In this document: positions 10,739 to 60,710 of the stretch, piece by piece
How positions within the stretch are numbered: position 1 is the first letter of the stretch
How the letters are laid out: every line of letters begins with the position of its first letter
IMG/VR virus record: IMGVR_UViG_3300015607_004069
Coordinates: 96,001-160,000 of that record
DNA from: a virus
Taxonomy: Duplodnaviria > Caudoviricetes
DNA: 64,000 nucleotides
Direction: 5' to 3' (one strand)
The notes under the pieces: generated by a model
Seen by the model: only the letters and a program-made list of their open reading frames with translations
Database searches by the model: none
Told to the model about the DNA's origin: nothing
Position numbers and translations under genes: made by a program

Positions 10739-11420
10739 TTAAATACCGGATTGAATTTCAGGCTCAACAATATGTTGAAATTTAGTGTAGACGTATATCT
10801 CTGCATGCAAAATATATGATTGATTGATCGCATTTAAGCAATTCATGTTAAAGTGCCAGTCTTCACCCCATTCGCGAGTAGAATTTCCCCAGCTGACGTG
10901 ATTGATCATTTCACGACGCACACTGGTTGCTCCAGCTGTTACTTTTCCGAATTTACTGCCATAAGGTTTACCGTGAATTTCTGGATCACTCGATTCTACT
11001 TTTTCCAATTTGATTTTGTCTATTTCGTATTCATCAAATGGATAATAACTAGGAATCCAAAAATGACTGATGTGCCATGCATCTGAATTCTCATAGGCAT
11101 ATCTGAGTGCCTCTACTCTTTGAGGATGCGTCAAATCGTCCGCATCTTGATAGATAAGAATATCATTATTGCTTACCATACTTGCTTTTTTGGCGGTTTT
11201 CGCCAGATCCGACATTTCGTTTAAATTCGATGAATTCGATGGGAAATCTAGTATAATTATGTAATAGTTCACTTTGCATTGTTCGATTAATATTTTGTGC
11301 GTTGCTGACACTAATAATCATGTTATCTGGCATTGCAGTGCCTTGACAATATGAATGAATCATTCGATCTAATAAATGAAAATGTTCTGCGGCACATGGT
11401 ACAATGATTGAGGTTTTCAT
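10739..11420 (-). pseudogene. GT2-family glycosyltransferase split by +1 frameshift at an A6 run
   Basis: MKTSIIVPC..GENRQK (11420 frame) joins ASMVSNNDILIYQDADD..WGED (10739 frame) if one A of the A6 run (T6 at 11186-11191) is removed. Confidence 0.75.
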
Positions 11421-11606
11421 TTGATATTTTTAATCTTAATAGCTAGACAGAATCGGCTTAGTATTTATGGAAAGAATACAGGTCAAAATCATGATTCCTA
11501 CAGAAGATGAGCAGGCACAATTTGGCTGTTTTGTCATCCTGCTCATTATAGCTGTTGTTTTATTTTCTATAGCTGTCATCTGGAAGCTGATCACAAGCTT
11601 TTGAAT

Positions 11607-11957
11607 TTATCTAGCATCCGGGTGTGGTGGAGGTGGCTTCCTCTTTTTCTTCATTCTGAAAGTGCTATATGGTTTTGGTGGTGAAGGATCGTGCTTGGTC
11701 GTATAATCTGTGATTATTGTTTCATCTGTCATCATAGGATGGGACATAACAGGTCTTTTCACAGGTGTTAATGGCTTTTGCTCTGTATCTGGTTGTCTAT
11801 TTTCTGCAATTAAATTATTGACTCGTATTCGTGTTGGCAGATCCCAACAATCACTGCAAAGGAATCTGCTTTTGAAACCATGCCATGTGCATAGTGTCTG
11901 TTTGCCACATGTACCACAAGTGTCAGCGATTGATGATTTCCTTTTCTTAGCCATCAC
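11607..11957 (-). CDS. Zinc-finger, basic hypothetical protein
   Basis: CGTC..CSDC, Lys/Pro-rich tail. Confidence 0.5.
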   Translation of the reverse strand: MMAKKRKSSIADTCGTCGKQTLCTWHGFKSRFLCSDCWDLPTRIRVNNLIAENRQPDTEQKPLTPVKRPVMSHPMMTDETIITDYTTKHDPSPPKPYSTFRMKKKRKPPPPHPDAR

Positions 11958-33356: not shown

Positions 33357-33675
33357 TGGCTGGTAACGAGATAACGTATTGTCTCGTCATGGGCACTCAG
33401 ACATGAGCATCCAAATCATATGGGCTTCTGATACAATCGAAGCATCCATGGGAGTCACCACAATTCCCCAAACCCAAAGCGAGAGCAAAATTGTGGCCTT
33501 TCTGCCGTTGTAGGAACAGCGGCGCGGTCCATTGTCAGTTGAGCCGTATGATTCAACTGGACGTTGTAGGCACTGACGAATAGTGCCTCGTCGCCGGTCT
33601 TCCAGACGTACCAAGACCCGTGTTGTCTCAGCGCATCAGACACGCTTATGGTTTTGAGCGAATCAAAACTGGCCA
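33357..33675 (+). ncRNA. Large multi-hairpin structured RNA candidate (~320 nt)
   Basis: Ten consecutive stem-loops closed by TGGCTGG/CTGGCCA, intergenic, followed by terminator. Confidence 0.6.
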
Positions 33676-33676
33676 T

Positions 33677-33716
33677 TGATGACCAGACACCATTACGGAT
33701 GTCTGGTCATCATTTT
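33677..33716 (+). terminator. Intrinsic terminator
   Basis: TGATGACCAGACA / TGTCTGGTCATCA then TTTT. Confidence 0.7.
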
Positions 33717-33735
33717 ATCCATTAAGGAATGACAT

Positions 33736-35514: not shown

Positions 35515-37116
35515 ATGAATACTATGTTTCATAATGCCAGAGTTTCTTTTGCTATCTGCACACCCATGGCGAAAGTGACCAATCCTCATGGCGTGTTGAT
35601 GTTCGACACATTGACACCGGAATGGCATAGAGCACGAGCCAGTCTAGCCATGCCTACCAACATCAATCTGGTAGAACTTTTAGCCGATGGTATGGAAGTC
35701 GGCGATGCCCGTTCAAAGATCGCCAAACTGTGTCTGGAAAGCAAACCAATACCAGAATTCTTATTCTTCTTAGATTCTGACGTTATCGTCCCATCAGATG
35801 CCTTGACCAAACTATTTTACAATGCCAGATGTTATCCAGACTACGATGTCTATGCTGGCGTTTATTGCTCTAAGACCAATCCACCAGAACCATTGATCTA
35901 TGGAGACAATGGCACAGGAGCCATCTGGGATTGGGCAGTAGGCGATCTGCTCATGGACGGCAGAGTGAAAAGCGTCCATATGGGTCTGACACTGATTAGA
36001 ACCAGTGCCTTCCGGAAGCTTCTGGATTCTGGCCTTGTCCATGGTACAGGGGATGACCAAGAAGACGAGCCGTTCTTCAAAACAGTCAATGAGACTGAAT
36101 TTGTCAATGGCAATAACCTGCTCAAGCGAGGAACAGAGGACATTTACTTCTGTGATAAGCTTATAAAGGCTGGCGGCAAAATATTCGTCAATACCGGAGT
36201 GTTAGCCGCCCATCACTGTCGGACCACAGGCATAATGTATGGTCTTCCGGTCGATAAGACCAATAACCCATTTAGACGCGCCAAATGGATGAAGGATGGC
36301 GACAAGACTCAGGATGTTCAGGAAGCCGAGAATCTGATCTACGAAGGGCCTTGTGAATGTGTCAAATATCTGACTAATGAAACGGAATTTCCAGAACAAT
36401 ATAAGCAGCTGGACAATTCAACGCTTTGCCTTGAAAATTGCGTTGACTGTAAAGGCACTGGCCATGTCAAAAGGCCATATAAGATAGCTATCGATATTGG
36501 AGCCGGTGATACGCGCAGAGAATGGCCGGGTTATAAGACTTACACTACTGATATTCGTAGCGATTCCAAGCCTGATTATGTTCAGGATTCACGTGCTCTA
36601 ACGCTGCCAAATAACCATTTTGATCTAGTGGCAAGCTCACACCATCTAGAGCATATTGGCCGATGGGATCAGGAAAAAGTCTGGAAGGAAATGTTTAAAA
36701 TCTGCAAGCCCGGTGGCAGAATTGAGCATGTCGTTCCTAATATACAATGGGCCGCTGCCTCCATTATGGAGAACAACATAGACGAGCACGTCATGAATGT
36801 CATTTATGGAGCACAGGAGGCTCATGGATATGCTCGTGAATTCAATACTCATTTCTTCGGCTATACCCCTGAGTTAGCTAAGGCACTGGCAAGATCAGTC
36901 GGATTCGTTGATGTAGAAACTGGAGACTGGCGACAGAATCCCAAGTTAGGTTATAACCTCCTGATAAAAGGTCGTAAGCCTTATCCCGATGAAGTAGTCA
37001 AAGACACAGTAGTCATGAAAGCCAGAAAACAGGAAGAAAAGGATAAAAAGAAAGAAAAAGAGCCAGAAAAAACAGATCAGAAACCAAGCCGGTCCAGAAG
37101 ATCAGCAGCAAAATAA
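35515..37116 (+). CDS. GT2-like glycosyltransferase fused to class I methyltransferase
   Basis: FFLDSDV, MGLTLI, TEDIYFC (GT-A); DIGAG, SHHLEH, CKPGG (MTase). Confidence 0.85.
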   Translation: MNTMFHNARVSFAICTPMAKVTNPHGVLMFDTLTPEWHRARASLAMPTNINLVELLADGMEVGDARSKIAKLCLESKPIPEFLFFLDSDVIVPSDALTKLFYNARCYPDYDVYAGVYCSKTNPPEPLIYGDNGTGAIWDWAVGDLLMDGRVKSVHMGLTLIRTSAFRKLLDSGLVHGTGDDQEDEPFFKTVNETEFVNGNNLLKRGTEDIYFCDKLIKAGGKIFVNTGVLAAHHCRTTGIMYGLPVDKTNNPFRRAKWMKDGDKTQDVQEAENLIYEGPCECVKYLTNETEFPEQYKQLDNSTLCLENCVDCKGTGHVKRPYKIAIDIGAGDTRREWPGYKTYTTDIRSDSKPDYVQDSRALTLPNNHFDLVASSHHLEHIGRWDQEKVWKEMFKICKPGGRIEHVVPNIQWAAASIMENNIDEHVMNVIYGAQEAHGYAREFNTHFFGYTPELAKALARSVGFVDVETGDWRQNPKLGYNLLIKGRKPYPDEVVKDTVVMKARKQEEKDKKKEKEPEKTDQKPSRSRRSAAK

Positions 37117-54191: not shown

Positions 54192-54923
54192 CTACTTTAA
54201 CATTCTAAACGCAAAATCGTCATATTCGATGCAAACATTGTTGAAGGAGAAGAACGTCTCATACTTCAAAACAGCACTGCCATCACCTCTTGGCCTGTTC
54301 ACTTTGGCCGTCCACTCTTCTAGACTCTTGGTCCAATAATGATTAAGTTGAATAATATCATATTCTGGTTCGCTTAGATAAGCACCAGCTACTTTGGTAC
54401 CGGAAAAGCTATGACAGCCAGTATATGTCAGACTGAATTGATGTGGATTTATAACATTCAAAGTGTACTCTGGCTGCACAAGGCATTTAACATGTCTGGC
54501 TTCTGTAATCTTGGCCCATGCTGTATATGATTCAACTACCCTGCCGGGTGGTTTTTTGATCCAGCCGCTATTACCAAACATCTTCCATGACATGGCCAAA
54601 GCACTGCTATTGTGTCGATATTTTAAAAGCTGCTTGAGGGGACTTTTTGGCACAATGAATTCATCTATATCGATAAATCCAAGCCACTGCGTGGAAGATC
54701 CATATCGCATCAGGCAATGGTCATAAGCTGCAAGCTGACTATGCAGGCCTACAAAGGATTCAACTGTTACATCTGGCGATGCGGGATAACCACATCCAAG
54801 ATTGTCATAAATGAAAAAGTGATCTACGCCAATCATGCGGTGCCAGTCTAACCATTCTGGCACATACTCTGGTTCATTGGTGAAGAGACAAAGACTGAGA
54901 TTGAATTTCATTTTAGCTCGCAC
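54192..54923 (-). CDS. GT92/GT2-like glycosyltransferase
   Basis: NEPEYVPEWLDWH..GVDHFFIYDN, QLAAYDHC, FIDIDEF, LNHYWTKS. Confidence 0.85.
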   Translation of the reverse strand: MRAKMKFNLSLCLFTNEPEYVPEWLDWHRMIGVDHFFIYDNLGCGYPASPDVTVESFVGLHSQLAAYDHCLMRYGSSTQWLGFIDIDEFIVPKSPLKQLLKYRHNSSALAMSWKMFGNSGWIKKPPGRVVESYTAWAKITEARHVKCLVQPEYTLNVINPHQFSLTYTGCHSFSGTKVAGAYLSEPEYDIIQLNHYWTKSLEEWTAKVNRPRGDGSAVLKYETFFSFNNVCIEYDDFAFRMLK

Positions 54924-55898
54924 TTACCATCTGTTTACATTAAGAATGTCACCAGTCCACATGCTATGGATTATCAGTCCGATGCCGTAAATCACAGCAC
55001 AAGCGGACTTTAAAAGATAGAGAGAACCTATAAAACAGAGAGCGGCGAGGCTAGCAAACGTCGCCATATAAAGCGGACAAATAAATAGATAGATCACTGA
55101 CGCTTTGAGCATTTCCCGTTCTCCTTGTATTCCGACTGTAAAAGTGAGAAGGCACGACATTGAATGCATTTGCAGTCCTTGCGTGGCATTCCATTGCTGT
55201 TGATTTTGCAGGATTCGTATCTATCAACGTCTTCTGCAAGAAATTCCTGTATCAATTGTTCCAATGCAGCATTACGAATACGAAGTTGTTTTGCTTTGTT
55301 GGTGTCACCACATGACTCACAAATAGCAGTGTCGCCTATCCATTTGATAGTAGTTCTCTCAACGCAATGGCATGTCCAGAACTTTATTGCTATATTGCTA
55401 AAAACTTTATCTATATCCATTTTACTTTCCCACCTTTGTCGTATTCATCTCCAACTTATCCAAGATGCGAATAGCCTTTTCTAACCTAGCCTTCAACATA
55501 TCATCCACACACTTGGTATAAGGATCGCTGTTAAACAGTCGGATAAGTCGATTTACCAGTATTCGCTTTTTGATTTCATTCTTGCTCATGCGACACACTG
55601 AACACATAGCTTCTTCGGGCATATCGCTGGGACCGAAATCATGTGGTCCACCATCATTACATCTTACTTGCCACATGATGATTGCCCCATGGTTCTAGTT
55701 ACCGGGGAATACGACGTATTCGATAGTAGGCTTATCTGGCCGAGCATCAGCTACCCATCCATCAAGTCGTGGTTCACACAACTTGAGTATACGAATTTCT
55801 TTAGGCTCCATCAGATCATACTCACTACAACACCTGTAACATACGAGTAATTTAGGATCGAATGTCTTGAGTAGATCGATTAGTTCCTGAACAGTCAT
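54924..55898 (-). other. Run of four small hypothetical ORFs (54924-55169, 55094-55420, 55422-55676, 55695-55898)
   Basis: Tightly packed co-oriented ORFs, several Cys-rich; MTVQELIDLL start typical of phage. Confidence 0.55.
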
Positions 55899-55926
55899 TT
55901 CTCACCCTTCCTTTCGCTTCTGATGG

Positions 55927-56358
55927 TTACTCTTTGGTTAGTGTTCCATCCGGCCATACGATTACAATTGGCTTGCCGGATTTGCGAGCATAACGAATCG
56001 TCGCCCATGTGCCTGAACGCTGCTCCTCTTGCATATCTGCTGGACATGCCAATAAGGTATTACAGTAGTCCACGATAGTTCGGTTGCGTTTCAATGGCGG
56101 TTCGGCTTCGTACACGCTATCACTTATCTTAATAGCATCGTGAGAAGTCTGATCGCTTATATTACAGGGATAGGCGTATAATGGGATATAGCGGTCTTGA
56201 TTACGAATGAGTTTAGCCATCCACGCATCGGCACCAATCGCACAACCATGAAGAAATCCAGTAAACGTATCGCCGGTAGAATTGAACCATTTGACCACAG
56301 CTTCCATCTGTGGTGGTGTCAAACCTTTTCGTGTACCAGTAAAGCCTAGATAACTCAT
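55927..56358 (-). CDS. SLOG (DprA/Smf-like) nucleotide-binding protein
   Basis: GFTGTRKG, HGCAIGAD, RNRTIVD, SGTWATIRYA. Confidence 0.8.
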   Translation of the reverse strand: MSYLGFTGTRKGLTPPQMEAVVKWFNSTGDTFTGFLHGCAIGADAWMAKLIRNQDRYIPLYAYPCNISDQTSHDAIKISDSVYEAEPPLKRNRTIVDYCNTLLACPADMQEEQRSGTWATIRYARKSGKPIVIVWPDGTLTKE

Positions 56359-56387
56359 TCCTGCCCCTTAGAAACCTGCTTCAGGCA

Positions 56388-56956
56388 CTAACTGACCGCT
56401 GTGATTGATTGCTTCTTGGTTTGTTTAAAGTCCTTAATATTTGGCCCTCGATAAGATGCCGGAAATCCACAGCATTTGCAATACATTGAACCTTCGATCA
56501 GACCTGCCCCACACCAACCGCATGGAATAAATACCATCATTGCTAAACCATCAAGGAAAGCGTCTATTCGTAATCTATTCGCATATGTGATTTCTTCACT
56601 CATCTTTTTGCCTCCGATGATAATAATTGTTTTTCCAACGCAGCGATGCGAGCACGTAATTTGACTATAACTTCTATTAAATCCGGTGGTGGTTCATACT
56701 TTACCTGTGCGTTCTGTGACTCAAAAGTCGAGGCAGCTTGATCACATATATCCAAGAATGGCCTAGTGAGACTTGGCGGTGCTTGCGGCACCATATCACA
56801 GCCTTTTGACATGAACTTGTATATTATTCTCCACAAAGCCGCATTCTTTTTCTGCTCTTCGACTAACTGCTTTTCCAATGCAACAATGCGAGATTGCGCA
56901 GCTATAGTACCACACTCTGGACATTCATCTATCAAATTATCATGTTTACATATCAT
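56388..56956 (-). other. Two small hypothetical ORFs (56388-56603, 56600-56956)
   Basis: Coupled ORFs with CxxC motifs and coiled coil. Confidence 0.55.
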
Positions 56957-56995
56957 ATGCTACTTTATGCCCTTTCTGGTTAATCATATTAAGAA

Positions 56996-57093
56996 GTAAG
57001 ATGCCAGACTGCCCACCTTTAGTAAGGATGGCATGGAGAGGTTAGCGCAAATCCCCTCACTGACCACGCACTAATATGGTCCCGGCATCTTAC
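56996..57093 (-). ncRNA. Four-way-junction RNA with loop-loop pseudoknot (candidate)
   Basis: P1 GTAAGATGCC/GGCATCTTAC, three internal hairpins, loops TTAGTGCG and TGCGCTAA complementary on minus strand. Confidence 0.65.
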
Positions 57094-57131
57094 CGTTCAT
57101 AAAATACGATTAGAAGTTTCTTCCTTGGAAA

Positions 57132-57785
57132 CTATAGCATACAAGCATCACTTCCTAATGAATCTAACCACTTATTAGACTTGTCTGCAATAATCTTCTC
57201 CAATTTAGTGATAGCAGTTCTTCTGTCCACGTCATTCTTAGCCATTACAGCAAAATATAAACCGATGGCAGCGACGGCAACATCAATCGCTTCTTCCTCT
57301 ACGCTACTATTGTGTCTTTTACCAGTCAATGCAGATTCGGCTAGAAATTCATTGGTCAATTCGCCTAGTTCTGATATAACATGGTTGAATAAAGTCGAAA
57401 TAGACTTGCCACGCTTCACTTCCGCATTAGCTATCCAATGTAATTTGTTGAATTGTGAAAGCTTATAAGCTAAAGTCTGTGGAACAGTTATTGAGAGATC
57501 ATCAGGAAAATCAGTTCGGATCAAAAAAGATGGCACTGAATAACAATCACTGAAGCTCAATAAGAATTGGCATCTGCGGCTCTGTTTCTTTTTGGCCACT
57601 GTCCAATCATGGCCCGGCGTTGCATGTGATACAGCAAGACGTATGAGTACATCCTGATTACGTTCGTATTTCAAAGATGTCACCATGCCACTAAAATGTT
57701 CAGAGTGGACATGAGTGCCGATGGTAAGCAGACCATCGCTTATCAATTCAAAGACATTATCGCTTGTCAGGGACTGAAAATTCAT
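57132..57785 (-). CDS. Protein with C-terminal MazG-like nucleotide pyrophosphatase domain
   Basis: ISELGELTNE..VEEEAIDVAVAA..K.NKW. Confidence 0.6.
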   Translation of the reverse strand: MNFQSLTSDNVFELISDGLLTIGTHVHSEHFSGMVTSLKYERNQDVLIRLAVSHATPGHDWTVAKKKQSRRCQFLLSFSDCYSVPSFLIRTDFPDDLSITVPQTLAYKLSQFNKLHWIANAEVKRGKSISTLFNHVISELGELTNEFLAESALTGKRHNSSVEEEAIDVAVAAIGLYFAVMAKNDVDRRTAITKLEKIIADKSNKWLDSLGSDACML

Positions 57786-57839
57786 AATTATATCCGGTAG
57801 GCCTCGTATCACCCATAATACGGACAAGGAGGTCCACAC

Positions 57840-58920: not shown

Positions 58921-59163
58921 TTAGTCCTGAGTGGTATGGTATGGCGATTCTTTCCATTCTAGGATCGTTTCGCCTGTTTCTGATTGTTCGCTGGTCCATT
59001 GGATGACATGAACCAACTTGTATTGCTTGGATCGTTTGGCGTTTTCAAAGACTTGTCTGGCTTCGTCCAGACTACTATAGTAGAATTCTGGTGCTACTGG
59101 CTCTAATGTGTGGTCGCCGTAGTTTCCGTGTCTCTGACCAGAAACAGTGTAGATCATTATCAT
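58921..59163 (-). CDS. Hypothetical protein
   Basis: AAGGA RBS. Confidence 0.5.
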   Translation of the reverse strand: MIMIYTVSGQRHGNYGDHTLEPVAPEFYYSSLDEARQVFENAKRSKQYKLVHVIQWTSEQSETGETILEWKESPYHTTQD

Positions 59164-59226
59164 CGTTCCTTAGAGGATTTACTTGGACGAAGGATAGTGA
59201 TCCTAGGGGTCTTTCCATAAATACGG

Positions 59227-59254
59227 TCAGACCCGACATTTCTGCCGGGTCTGA
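59227..59254 (-). terminator. Hairpin with GAAA tetraloop after AT-hook gene
   Basis: Minus strand TCAGACCCGGCA-GAAA-TGTCGGGTCTGA. Confidence 0.65.
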
Positions 59255-59987: not shown

Positions 59988-60710
59988 GTGAATACGTTCG
60001 TTACTGCCGATCCGCACTACCACCACAGGAACATCATCAGATACTGCAATCGGCCTTTCCTGTCAGATGTCGATGCAGAGGAACTGCAGAGACGTGGCGG
60101 CAAATGGCACGATGGCGACTGGCGTAGCAATCCATGGAAGATAAGCGACGAATCTCTCGAAATGATGAATAGAGCCTTAGTAAAGGAAACAAACAGGCTC
60201 GTCAAACGGGATGACACCTTGATCATCGTTGGCGATTATAGCCTGAAGCCTAATAAGGAAAAGGACTTGAAGGAATACTATAGGAAATGCAGAGAAATCC
60301 GTGATCTGATCCACTGCCAGAATGTACACCTGATAAAAGGCAACCATGATCACGATTGCATCGCCGACCTGTTCTCTTCTTATTCTGTCGTACTAGAGGG
60401 CGAGTACTATGGCTCCCATGTCGTCTTCTCTCATCATGCTTTCTTGGCATGGAATAAAGCACATCGAGCCGCTATCCACTTATATGGGCATTCGCATTCC
60501 GAAATAGAGGAATGGTGTGACCTGTTCATGCCGGGTCGTAGAAGCATAGATGTAGGAGTAGATAATGCCGCTAAAATCTTGAAGGTGTATAGGCCATTCA
60601 ACCTACAAACAGAGATCGTCAACGTCTTGAGTCAACGATCTGGCTTTTCTATGAATAAACACATTCCAACCAATAGCACTTCACCAAATGAAGCCGATCA
60701 TGTCGATTGA
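59988..60710 (+). CDS. Calcineurin-like metallophosphoesterase
   Basis: ADPHYHHRNII, VGD, GNHD, HLYGHSH, DVGVD. Confidence 0.9.
   Translation: MNTFVTADPHYHHRNIIRYCNRPFLSDVDAEELQRRGGKWHDGDWRSNPWKISDESLEMMNRALVKETNRLVKRDDTLIIVGDYSLKPNKEKDLKEYYRKCREIRDLIHCQNVHLIKGNHDHDCIADLFSSYSVVLEGEYYGSHVVFSHHAFLAWNKAHRAAIHLYGHSHSEIEEWCDLFMPGRRSIDVGVDNAAKILKVYRPFNLQTEIVNVLSQRSGFSMNKHIPTNSTSPNEADHVD

Follow-up and report, generated by a model that had tools for sequence, protein, structure and literature searches.

To our knowledge, jumbo phages have so far yielded few structured RNAs. The pRNA of the phi29 family (RF00044) is a phage RNA of ~120 nt, encoded near one end of the genome in small podoviruses, in which a three-way junction carries two mutually complementary loops with covariation among related phages; these loops pair between molecules, through four nucleotides, to form a ring that docks on the portal. 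Phage T4 encodes two small stable RNAs, species 1 and 2 (rnaC/rnaD), which are structured, measure ~100–140 nt and have paired ends; they lie in the T4 tRNA cluster, are processed along with the tRNAs and have no assigned function. At the heads of mRNAs, the 5′ stabilisers of the ompA leader and the T4 gene 32 leader are simple hairpins, whose pairing at the 5′ end stabilises the message independently of the gene that follows. The 5′ cloverleaf (oriL) of the enteroviruses, ~90 nt at the start of the viral RNA and with a conserved internal loop in its last arm, serves as a protein platform and shields the RNA from decay. The aptamer of the purine riboswitches (the ‘tuning fork’, RF00167) is a three-way junction with invariant junction nucleotides, closed by a short, switching P1 and carrying two hairpins of equal length that touch through two Watson–Crick pairs between their loops. 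The ROOL, GOLLD and OLE RNAs, finally, have recently been described as self-assembling.

The element analysed here is best classed as a phage structured leader or small RNA, and as an RNA it belongs to no described family. It lies at positions 56995–57094 (minus strand) of a 64,000-nt stretch of viral DNA (the window), where it forms a four-way junction of ~100 nt; the minus-strand genes on either side of it are 175 nt apart. An IMG/VR virus record of 181,658 bp, estimated to be ~51% complete, contains the window, which thus comes from a jumbo phage; a search of the 181.7-kb record found the element in a single copy. The element is a real RNA element, which keeps its base pairs through matching paired mutations in a second, distantly related phage, represented by the 128.9-kb Logan contig L122. 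Very probably it is also a functional, conserved and strand-specific structured RNA whose family is absent from Rfam. As to the phage itself, a metallophosphatase encoded at 59988–60710 is 87% identical in L122 and has 40–50% identical homologues on many contigs of 360–650 kb, some of them labelled provirus, which places the phage among huge-phage lineages. Samples from the studies behind SRR14932535-42, ERZ27283041 and DRR438477 contain the phage.

A first-pass annotation of the window had proposed a compact four-way-junction RNA on the minus strand at this locus, and both the architecture and the orientation held up. The minus-strand sequence of 56995–57094 folds as a four-way junction with a minimum free energy (MFE) of −44.5 kcal/mol; of 200 dinucleotide shuffles, not one folds as stably (z −4.27). 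The plus strand folds less well (−33.7 kcal/mol), and with a covariance model the minus strand scores 130 bits and the reverse 15 bits. Folded independently, the window and L122 sequences arrive at one and the same junction (z −3.9 and −4.4). Strong folding recurs in several other non-coding regions of the phage: a coarse scan of intergenic sequence also found folds beyond those of shuffles at 59145–59254 (minus strand, z −5.9), at 33610–33719 (both strands, z −5.4) and at G000 36399–36508 (z −7.7).

The junction, whose features are all given here for the minus strand, is closed by P1, in which a 13-nt 5′ strand (57082–57094) pairs with 56995–57007. The annotated helix, GUAAGAUGCCGG/CUGGCAUCUUAC, was found at its coordinates with 12 bp, to which an added G57094–U56995 pair gives a thirteenth. 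The P2 hairpin (57062–57081) follows directly, with a 6-bp stem (57081–57076 with 57067–57062) and an 8-nt loop, L2 (57075–57068). Its five annotated pairs, GACCA/UGGUC, are correct but incomplete, as RNAalifold adds a sixth, U57076–G57067, which is C–G in L122. A three-nucleotide linker, J2/3 (AGU, 57059–57061), which is invariant in the alignment, leads to the P3 hairpin (57036–57058). Here the annotated register, GAGG/CCTC, had to be abandoned, since two of the four pairs it contains are broken in L122; the 6-bp helix GAGGGG/CCUCUC (57058–57053 with 57041–57036) fits instead and encloses an 11-nt loop, L3 (57052–57042). P4 (57010–57033) is a two-part hairpin, just as annotated, with a conserved base (GCC-RU-CCU/AGG-UG-GGC) that contains a 2 × 2 internal loop, and a variable tip. 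The four junction linkers (none, AGU, CA and GU; 0, 3, 2 and 2 nt) are invariant throughout. We also considered a pairing of GGUAAG in the P1 5′ strand with CUUAC in the P4 loop; this is possible in the window but not conserved in L122, and was set aside as chance.

L122 supplies the one distant homologue (L122:10700–10821), which scores 76–94 bits, the lower figure being that obtained with a single-sequence model made from the window only. The element lies there directly after the orthologue of the gene that precedes it in the window, a MazG-like gene, in a gap of equal length. The MazG-like proteins of the two phages are 59% identical, and the phages are collinear across 20 kb with protein identities of 44–87%. 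Within the core of the element 80 of 98 positions are identical (~82%), against 68% across 1.9 kb of flanking sequence, the MazG-like gene included.

The structure test used an alignment of three sequences (the window, a strain variant and L122), on which we scored a structure made up of the junction with the 6-bp P3 plus a helix between L2 and L3, using as controls the same structure slid by 1–3 columns. In the alignment 98.3% of cells are paired, compared with 33–47% in the slid controls, and five pairs show a double change (two in P1 and one each in P2, P3 and the loop–loop helix), compared with none or one in the controls. Between the window and L122, P1 has two double compensatory pairs and two one-sided changes, with all of its cells paired. 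One P2 pair goes from C–G to U–A by a double change and another from U–G to C–G. In P3, a G–C pair is replaced by A–U in compensatory fashion and a G–U pair becomes A–U, with every pair of the 6-bp register kept. The sequence of the P4 base does not vary at all, and the tip has 27 nt in L122 against 6 in the window and there contains a 7-bp hairpin. Compensatory substitutions of the kind that mark a conserved structured RNA are thus seen across independent lineages, two in number. With two lineages only, and with 5 of 500 shuffles reaching the observed values, the covariation falls short of statistical significance, and the support that the alignment lends to the structure is best described as good but not statistically decisive. 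The strain variant, G57065A, appears in three runs and introduces a C–A mismatch into P2; it says little about selection, however, as SNP density in the element equals the ~1% of the surrounding sequence.

The first-pass annotation had further described an 8-nt complementarity between the P2 and P3 loops that includes two G–U pairs, and had looked to a homologue for covariation of these pairs. The complementarity is present, between the L2 segment UUAGUGCG (57074–57067) and the L3 segment UGCGCUAA (57049–57042), although the firm pairs number seven: G57067 is likelier to be engaged in the sixth pair of P2, which competes with the terminal G–U pair. In L122 the segments read UUAGUACG and UGUACUAA, and all eight pairs are retained, with G57069–C57047 replaced by A–U in a double change, U57070–G57046 replaced by U–A and the other six the same. 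The energy of the L2/L3 duplex is −8.6 kcal/mol in the window and −7.0 kcal/mol in L122; when L2 of the window is combined with L3 of L122, the prediction is asymmetric (−7.0 against −2.6 kcal/mol). At least eight contiguous pairs arise in 1.4% of trials with shuffled loops of the same composition. Both loops have no spare nucleotides on the 3′ side of the paired segment and one to three on the 5′ side, a layout that is that of coaxially stacked kissing complexes.

The loop pairs therefore covary, as the annotated kissing loop would have it, but a kiss is only one of several ways in which they could form. Read from the alignment, the covariation indicates that the L2 and L3 segments pair, and three topologies are compatible with this. 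In one, the loops kiss within a single molecule. Argued from established helix geometry, a full kiss of 7–8 bp in cis is sterically doubtful, since P2, kiss and P3 in line amount to 19 bp, or ~53 Å, and the two ends of this rod are tied together by the 3 nt of J2/3; a partial kiss of 2–4 pairs in the style of the purine riboswitch is possible. In another, two copies kiss reciprocally, an arrangement that should close naturally given that the composite helices are of equal length. In the last, P2 and P3 are melted and the L2 and L3 segments form a helix nested within a three-way junction. This alternative is possible on the energy models, which place it above the four-way fold by 5.4 kcal/mol in the window and by 3.0 kcal/mol in L122, and it is the predicted MFE structure of the natural variant G57065A.

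Upstream of the element lies the conserved gene mentioned above (57132–57839, minus strand), whose product combines a beta-rich N-terminal domain with a C-terminal domain that resembles the MazG pyrophosphatases (PHROG 1247, E 1.4e-5), a weak assignment. The N-terminal domain (~120 aa) matches no family. The AlphaFold model of the protein is poor (pLDDT 39), and the structural neighbours of the N-terminal domain in the Atlas are weak SH3/KOW-like barrels (TM 0.4–0.5) that give no firm hint of RNA binding. Over the stop codon of the gene sits a small conserved hairpin, GUUUC...GAAAC (57116–57132, minus strand; longer, with 7 bp, in L122), which may act as a terminator or stabiliser. In both phages, AC(C)UUCU follows this hairpin and follows P1 also (56990–56996), and could be a common signal for processing or termination. 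Between the two phages a single conserved block opens where the MazG-like gene ends and extends as far as ACUUCU, 5 nt beyond the 3′ strand of P1; past this point the phages can no longer be aligned.

What follows is a variable island of genes (54192–56956, minus strand). In the window this is ~2.8 kb long and holds eight small genes, encoding proteins of 118, 71, 143, 67, 84, 108 and 81 aa and then a GT92-like glycosyltransferase of 243 aa; the first of these genes (56600–56956, minus strand) matches no family. The element had been said to head an operon of small genes that includes a SLOG gene. The position is right, in that the ATG at 56956 lies 39 nt past the element and a run of small minus-strand genes follows, but the gene in question (143 aa) is only weakly DprA/SLOG-like. 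In L122 the island is ~1 kb long (10838–11830) and has two unrelated genes, for proteins of 209 aa and 119 aa (DUF3307), so that the first genes downstream of the element in the two phages (118 aa and 209 aa) are unrelated to one another. The 209-aa protein has a weak Anti-TRAP-like zinc motif. Homology resumes ~40 nt before a conserved gene for a 112-aa protein, at the conserved sequence AAATTATTTAAGATGAAAYTCATAGAGGGAT. Strains L123 and L125, which are 99% identical to the window, cleanly lack 55941–56388 together with the 143-aa gene, and the island thus varies even inside one phage species. No metabolic domains were found in the island genes.

The distance from the element to the next gene is not conserved either. 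In L122 a Shine–Dalgarno sequence (GGAG) starts 8 nt and an ATG 16 nt after P1, which leaves no room for a separate promoter and means that the next gene must be transcribed through the element. In the window the corresponding distances are more than 20 nt and 39 nt. On the other side of the element, the GTATT noted in the first pass does start 14 nt before P1 as then drawn. It forms part of GTATTTT (57101–57107, minus strand), which ends 7 nt before P1 and is invariant in L122 amid a diverged spacer. Across the genome GTATT is not enriched; in upstream gaps it occurs ~2-fold over expectation with no fixed distance, and no extended motif around it recurs. No sigma-70-like promoter was found before the element, nor any intrinsic terminator after it. 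The one feature that would mark GTATTTT as a candidate promoter is its conservation in the two sequences.

The proposal that the element matches no known family was borne out by the searches. A scan of the whole window with Rfam 15 at gathering thresholds gave no matches, and a permissive scan of both homologues (E ≤10) gave chance matches of snoRNA and lncRNA type at 11–19 bits, none of which spans the element. ARAGORN calls no tRNA or tmRNA in the window. The only tRNA gene of the 181.7-kb record, tRNA-Arg(TCT) (G000 180235–180309, minus strand), lies outside the window and ~27 kb from the element. Nor is the element tRNA-like. The acceptor stem of a tRNA has 7 bp, and its other arms are the anticodon arm and the D and T arms, the last two with conserved loops; here ARAGORN makes no call, P1 is 13 bp long and it is the first two arms that make contact. 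Nothing matching was found in the literature.

Further relatives were sought by several routes. The MazG-like protein, searched against 5.8 billion proteins, returned two clusters, one comprising near-identical strains (contigs L123–L127) and the other the L122 protein; a profile of the MazG-like protein run against 1.84 billion cluster representatives in search of a third lineage found distant MazG domains only. Orthologues were found in only two lineages among 15 billion proteins, and the 112-aa protein, used as an anchor, is found in the same two only. Scans for the locus with single flanking proteins gave nothing. Among viral contigs, the exact loop pattern has at least 119 matches, all chance or coding, and the junction pattern CAGTGA..TCCA..AGGTGGGCAGTC has none; the latter has 13 matches in metagenome contigs, all in unrelated GC-rich DNA. 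A pattern for P3 and its loop gave 9 matches in viral contigs and 24 in genome contigs, none of which fits the model. A blastn comparison of 1.1 kb with GenBank phages found no match, and a model built from the two lineages (R2) found none in the 30 jumbo-phage records examined, all of which also encode the metallophosphatase, and none at locus L141.

What might such an element do? Our tentative preference is for a constitutively folded leader module that heads the variable gene island. Transcribed together with whichever genes fill the island, at the front of their mRNA, and indifferent to their identity, it would have its 5′ end buried in the 13-bp P1 and locked by the interaction of P2 with P3. 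A 5′ end buried in this way might be protected from 5′-end-dependent decay or might offer a defined point for processing, and the same stable 5′ end would then serve for the expression of any inserted cassette. The complementarity of the loops could serve as a clamp on the fold, as a joint between two copies or as the means to a second fold. Closure of both ends by a helix as long as the 13-bp P1 is what stable RNAs typically show; riboswitches usually switch through helices of 4–8 bp. Of the functions suggested in the first pass, that of a nuclease-resistant type of RNA would fit such a leader. Several observations count against the leader module: the spacing to the next start codon differs between the phages (39 nt and 16 nt), the link of the element to the MazG-like gene before it is as consistent as its link to the island, and one natural variant carries the uncompensated C–A mismatch in P2, at a neutral SNP rate of ~1%.

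Known bacterial 5′ stabilisers make do with simple hairpins, and the elaborate junction and covarying loops of the element suggest a specific partner. Together with the invariance of P4, this keeps a trans-acting or self-assembling RNA close behind the leader. Such an RNA, cut from the polycistronic transcript as a stable, stand-alone molecule and acting as a homodimer or oligomer that kisses through L2 and L3, or bound to a phage or host protein, is a less probable reading. The closure of both ends by P1 recalls processed stable RNAs, conservation ends with P1 and there is no tie to any family of downstream genes; P2 and P3 are of equal length, with complementary loops in the coaxial-kissing layout, and two molecules could close the 19 bp of P2, kiss and P3 as two parallel composite helices. 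The invariant base of P4, with its conserved 2 × 2 internal loop, resembles a recognition site. Weighing against a stand-alone RNA are the want of a promoter or terminator of its own, the start of the next gene in L122 within 16 nt and the single copy of the element, with no partner RNA found in the record. That the loops join two or more copies hand in hand, with P1-P2-kiss-P3′-P4′ composite helices making up an RNA-only assembly, is somewhat less probable again and, on balance, unlikely. In another reading the element would form the 3′ end of the MazG-like mRNA, where it might block 3′ exonucleases, or a site in the DNA itself (a single-stranded fold or recombination boundary) at the edge of the island. 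The element always follows the MazG-like gene in one uninterrupted conserved block and sits exactly where conserved sequence gives way to variable, but the stop codon already has a hairpin of its own, the element is repeated neither at the other edge of the island nor elsewhere, and a non-exhaustive look saw no recombinase adjoining it. The complex junction and the covarying pairs of tertiary type indicate a function in RNA, which leaves a 3′-end or DNA-level role with slim prospects.

The two alternative folds raise the question of a switch, whether riboswitch, thermosensor or protein-operated device, in which the four-way fold would give way to the three-way fold and expose the pyrimidine-rich 3′ strand of P3. 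The modest cost of the alternative in both phages, its standing as the MFE structure of G57065A, the fact that both sets of pairs stay paired in L122 and the invariant junction linkers all speak for such a device. P1, however, is very stable and unchanged in both folds, the 5′-to-3′ order of folding favours P2 and P3, and we found neither a conserved expression platform or terminator downstream nor a conserved pairing of the exposed strand with the Shine–Dalgarno sequence of the next gene. The unrelated downstream genes share no metabolic theme, and a two-state switch is accordingly improbable. For the riboswitch that the first pass had proposed, the same features tell in the same direction: a P1 of 13 bp is too long and stable to switch, no terminator or conserved anti-Shine–Dalgarno pairing makes up an expression platform sharing a P1 strand, and the downstream genes, in a sample of two lineages, show no recurrent association with one pathway. 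Whatever their identity, small genes on the same strand follow the element in a long run, and such a position would suit a leader that modifies RNA polymerase or promotes processive antitermination, like HK022 put or the Bacillus EAR, and reads through downstream intergenic hairpins; several strongly structured intergenic regions do lie further along the phage. Rfam scans revealed no likeness to put or EAR in sequence or structure and no terminators are predicted nearby, and we give such a mechanism little credence. Least probable of all is a new class of self-cleaving ribozyme, also floated in the first pass. All that speaks for it is a general resemblance to the four-way-junction ribozymes whose arms dock (hairpin, twister-sister). 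No ribozyme family matches it at E ≤10 (hairpin, twister-sister and hammerhead models among them), nor does any conserved internal-loop pattern in it match a known active site.

Leader or small RNA, this is a compact element with support from paired mutations in every helix and in its loop pairing, placed at the boundary between conserved sequence and fast-changing accessory genes. If it is indeed a gene-independent leader, it would show how a phage can achieve reliable expression of newly acquired genes, and would offer a natural insulator part. [quoted passage not shown] A possible likeness to the enterovirus oriL, another cloverleaf of similar size at the start of a viral RNA and with a conserved internal loop in its last arm, is tempered by the differences: oriL belongs to eukaryotic plus-strand RNA viruses, shows no homology to the element and has no loop–loop helix. 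With T4 species 1 and 2 the element shares its phage origin, its size and its paired ends, but those RNAs are part of a tRNA cluster, whereas the element is far from the single tRNA gene of its record.

In architecture the purine-riboswitch aptamer is a close parallel, with its P1-closed junction, its two hairpins of equal length in contact through their loops and its invariant junction nucleotides. The element differs in having four arms, 7–8 possible loop pairs and a 13-bp P1, and, unlike the purine riboswitch, it lacks an expression platform and purine-related genes, and cmscan gives no match. The phi29-family pRNA is the parallel among phages, as an RNA of comparable length in which two complementary loops covary from phage to phage. 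There the junction is three-way and the loops pair between molecules; in the element, which has a four-way junction, comes from a tailed jumbo phage and is not matched by the RF00044 model, intermolecular pairing is a candidate only. Should its loops nonetheless prove to join copies, the element would rank among the smallest natural self-assembling RNAs, and its assembly would be a miniature jumbo-phage counterpart of the phi29 pRNA rings or of the self-assembling ROOL, GOLLD and OLE RNAs.
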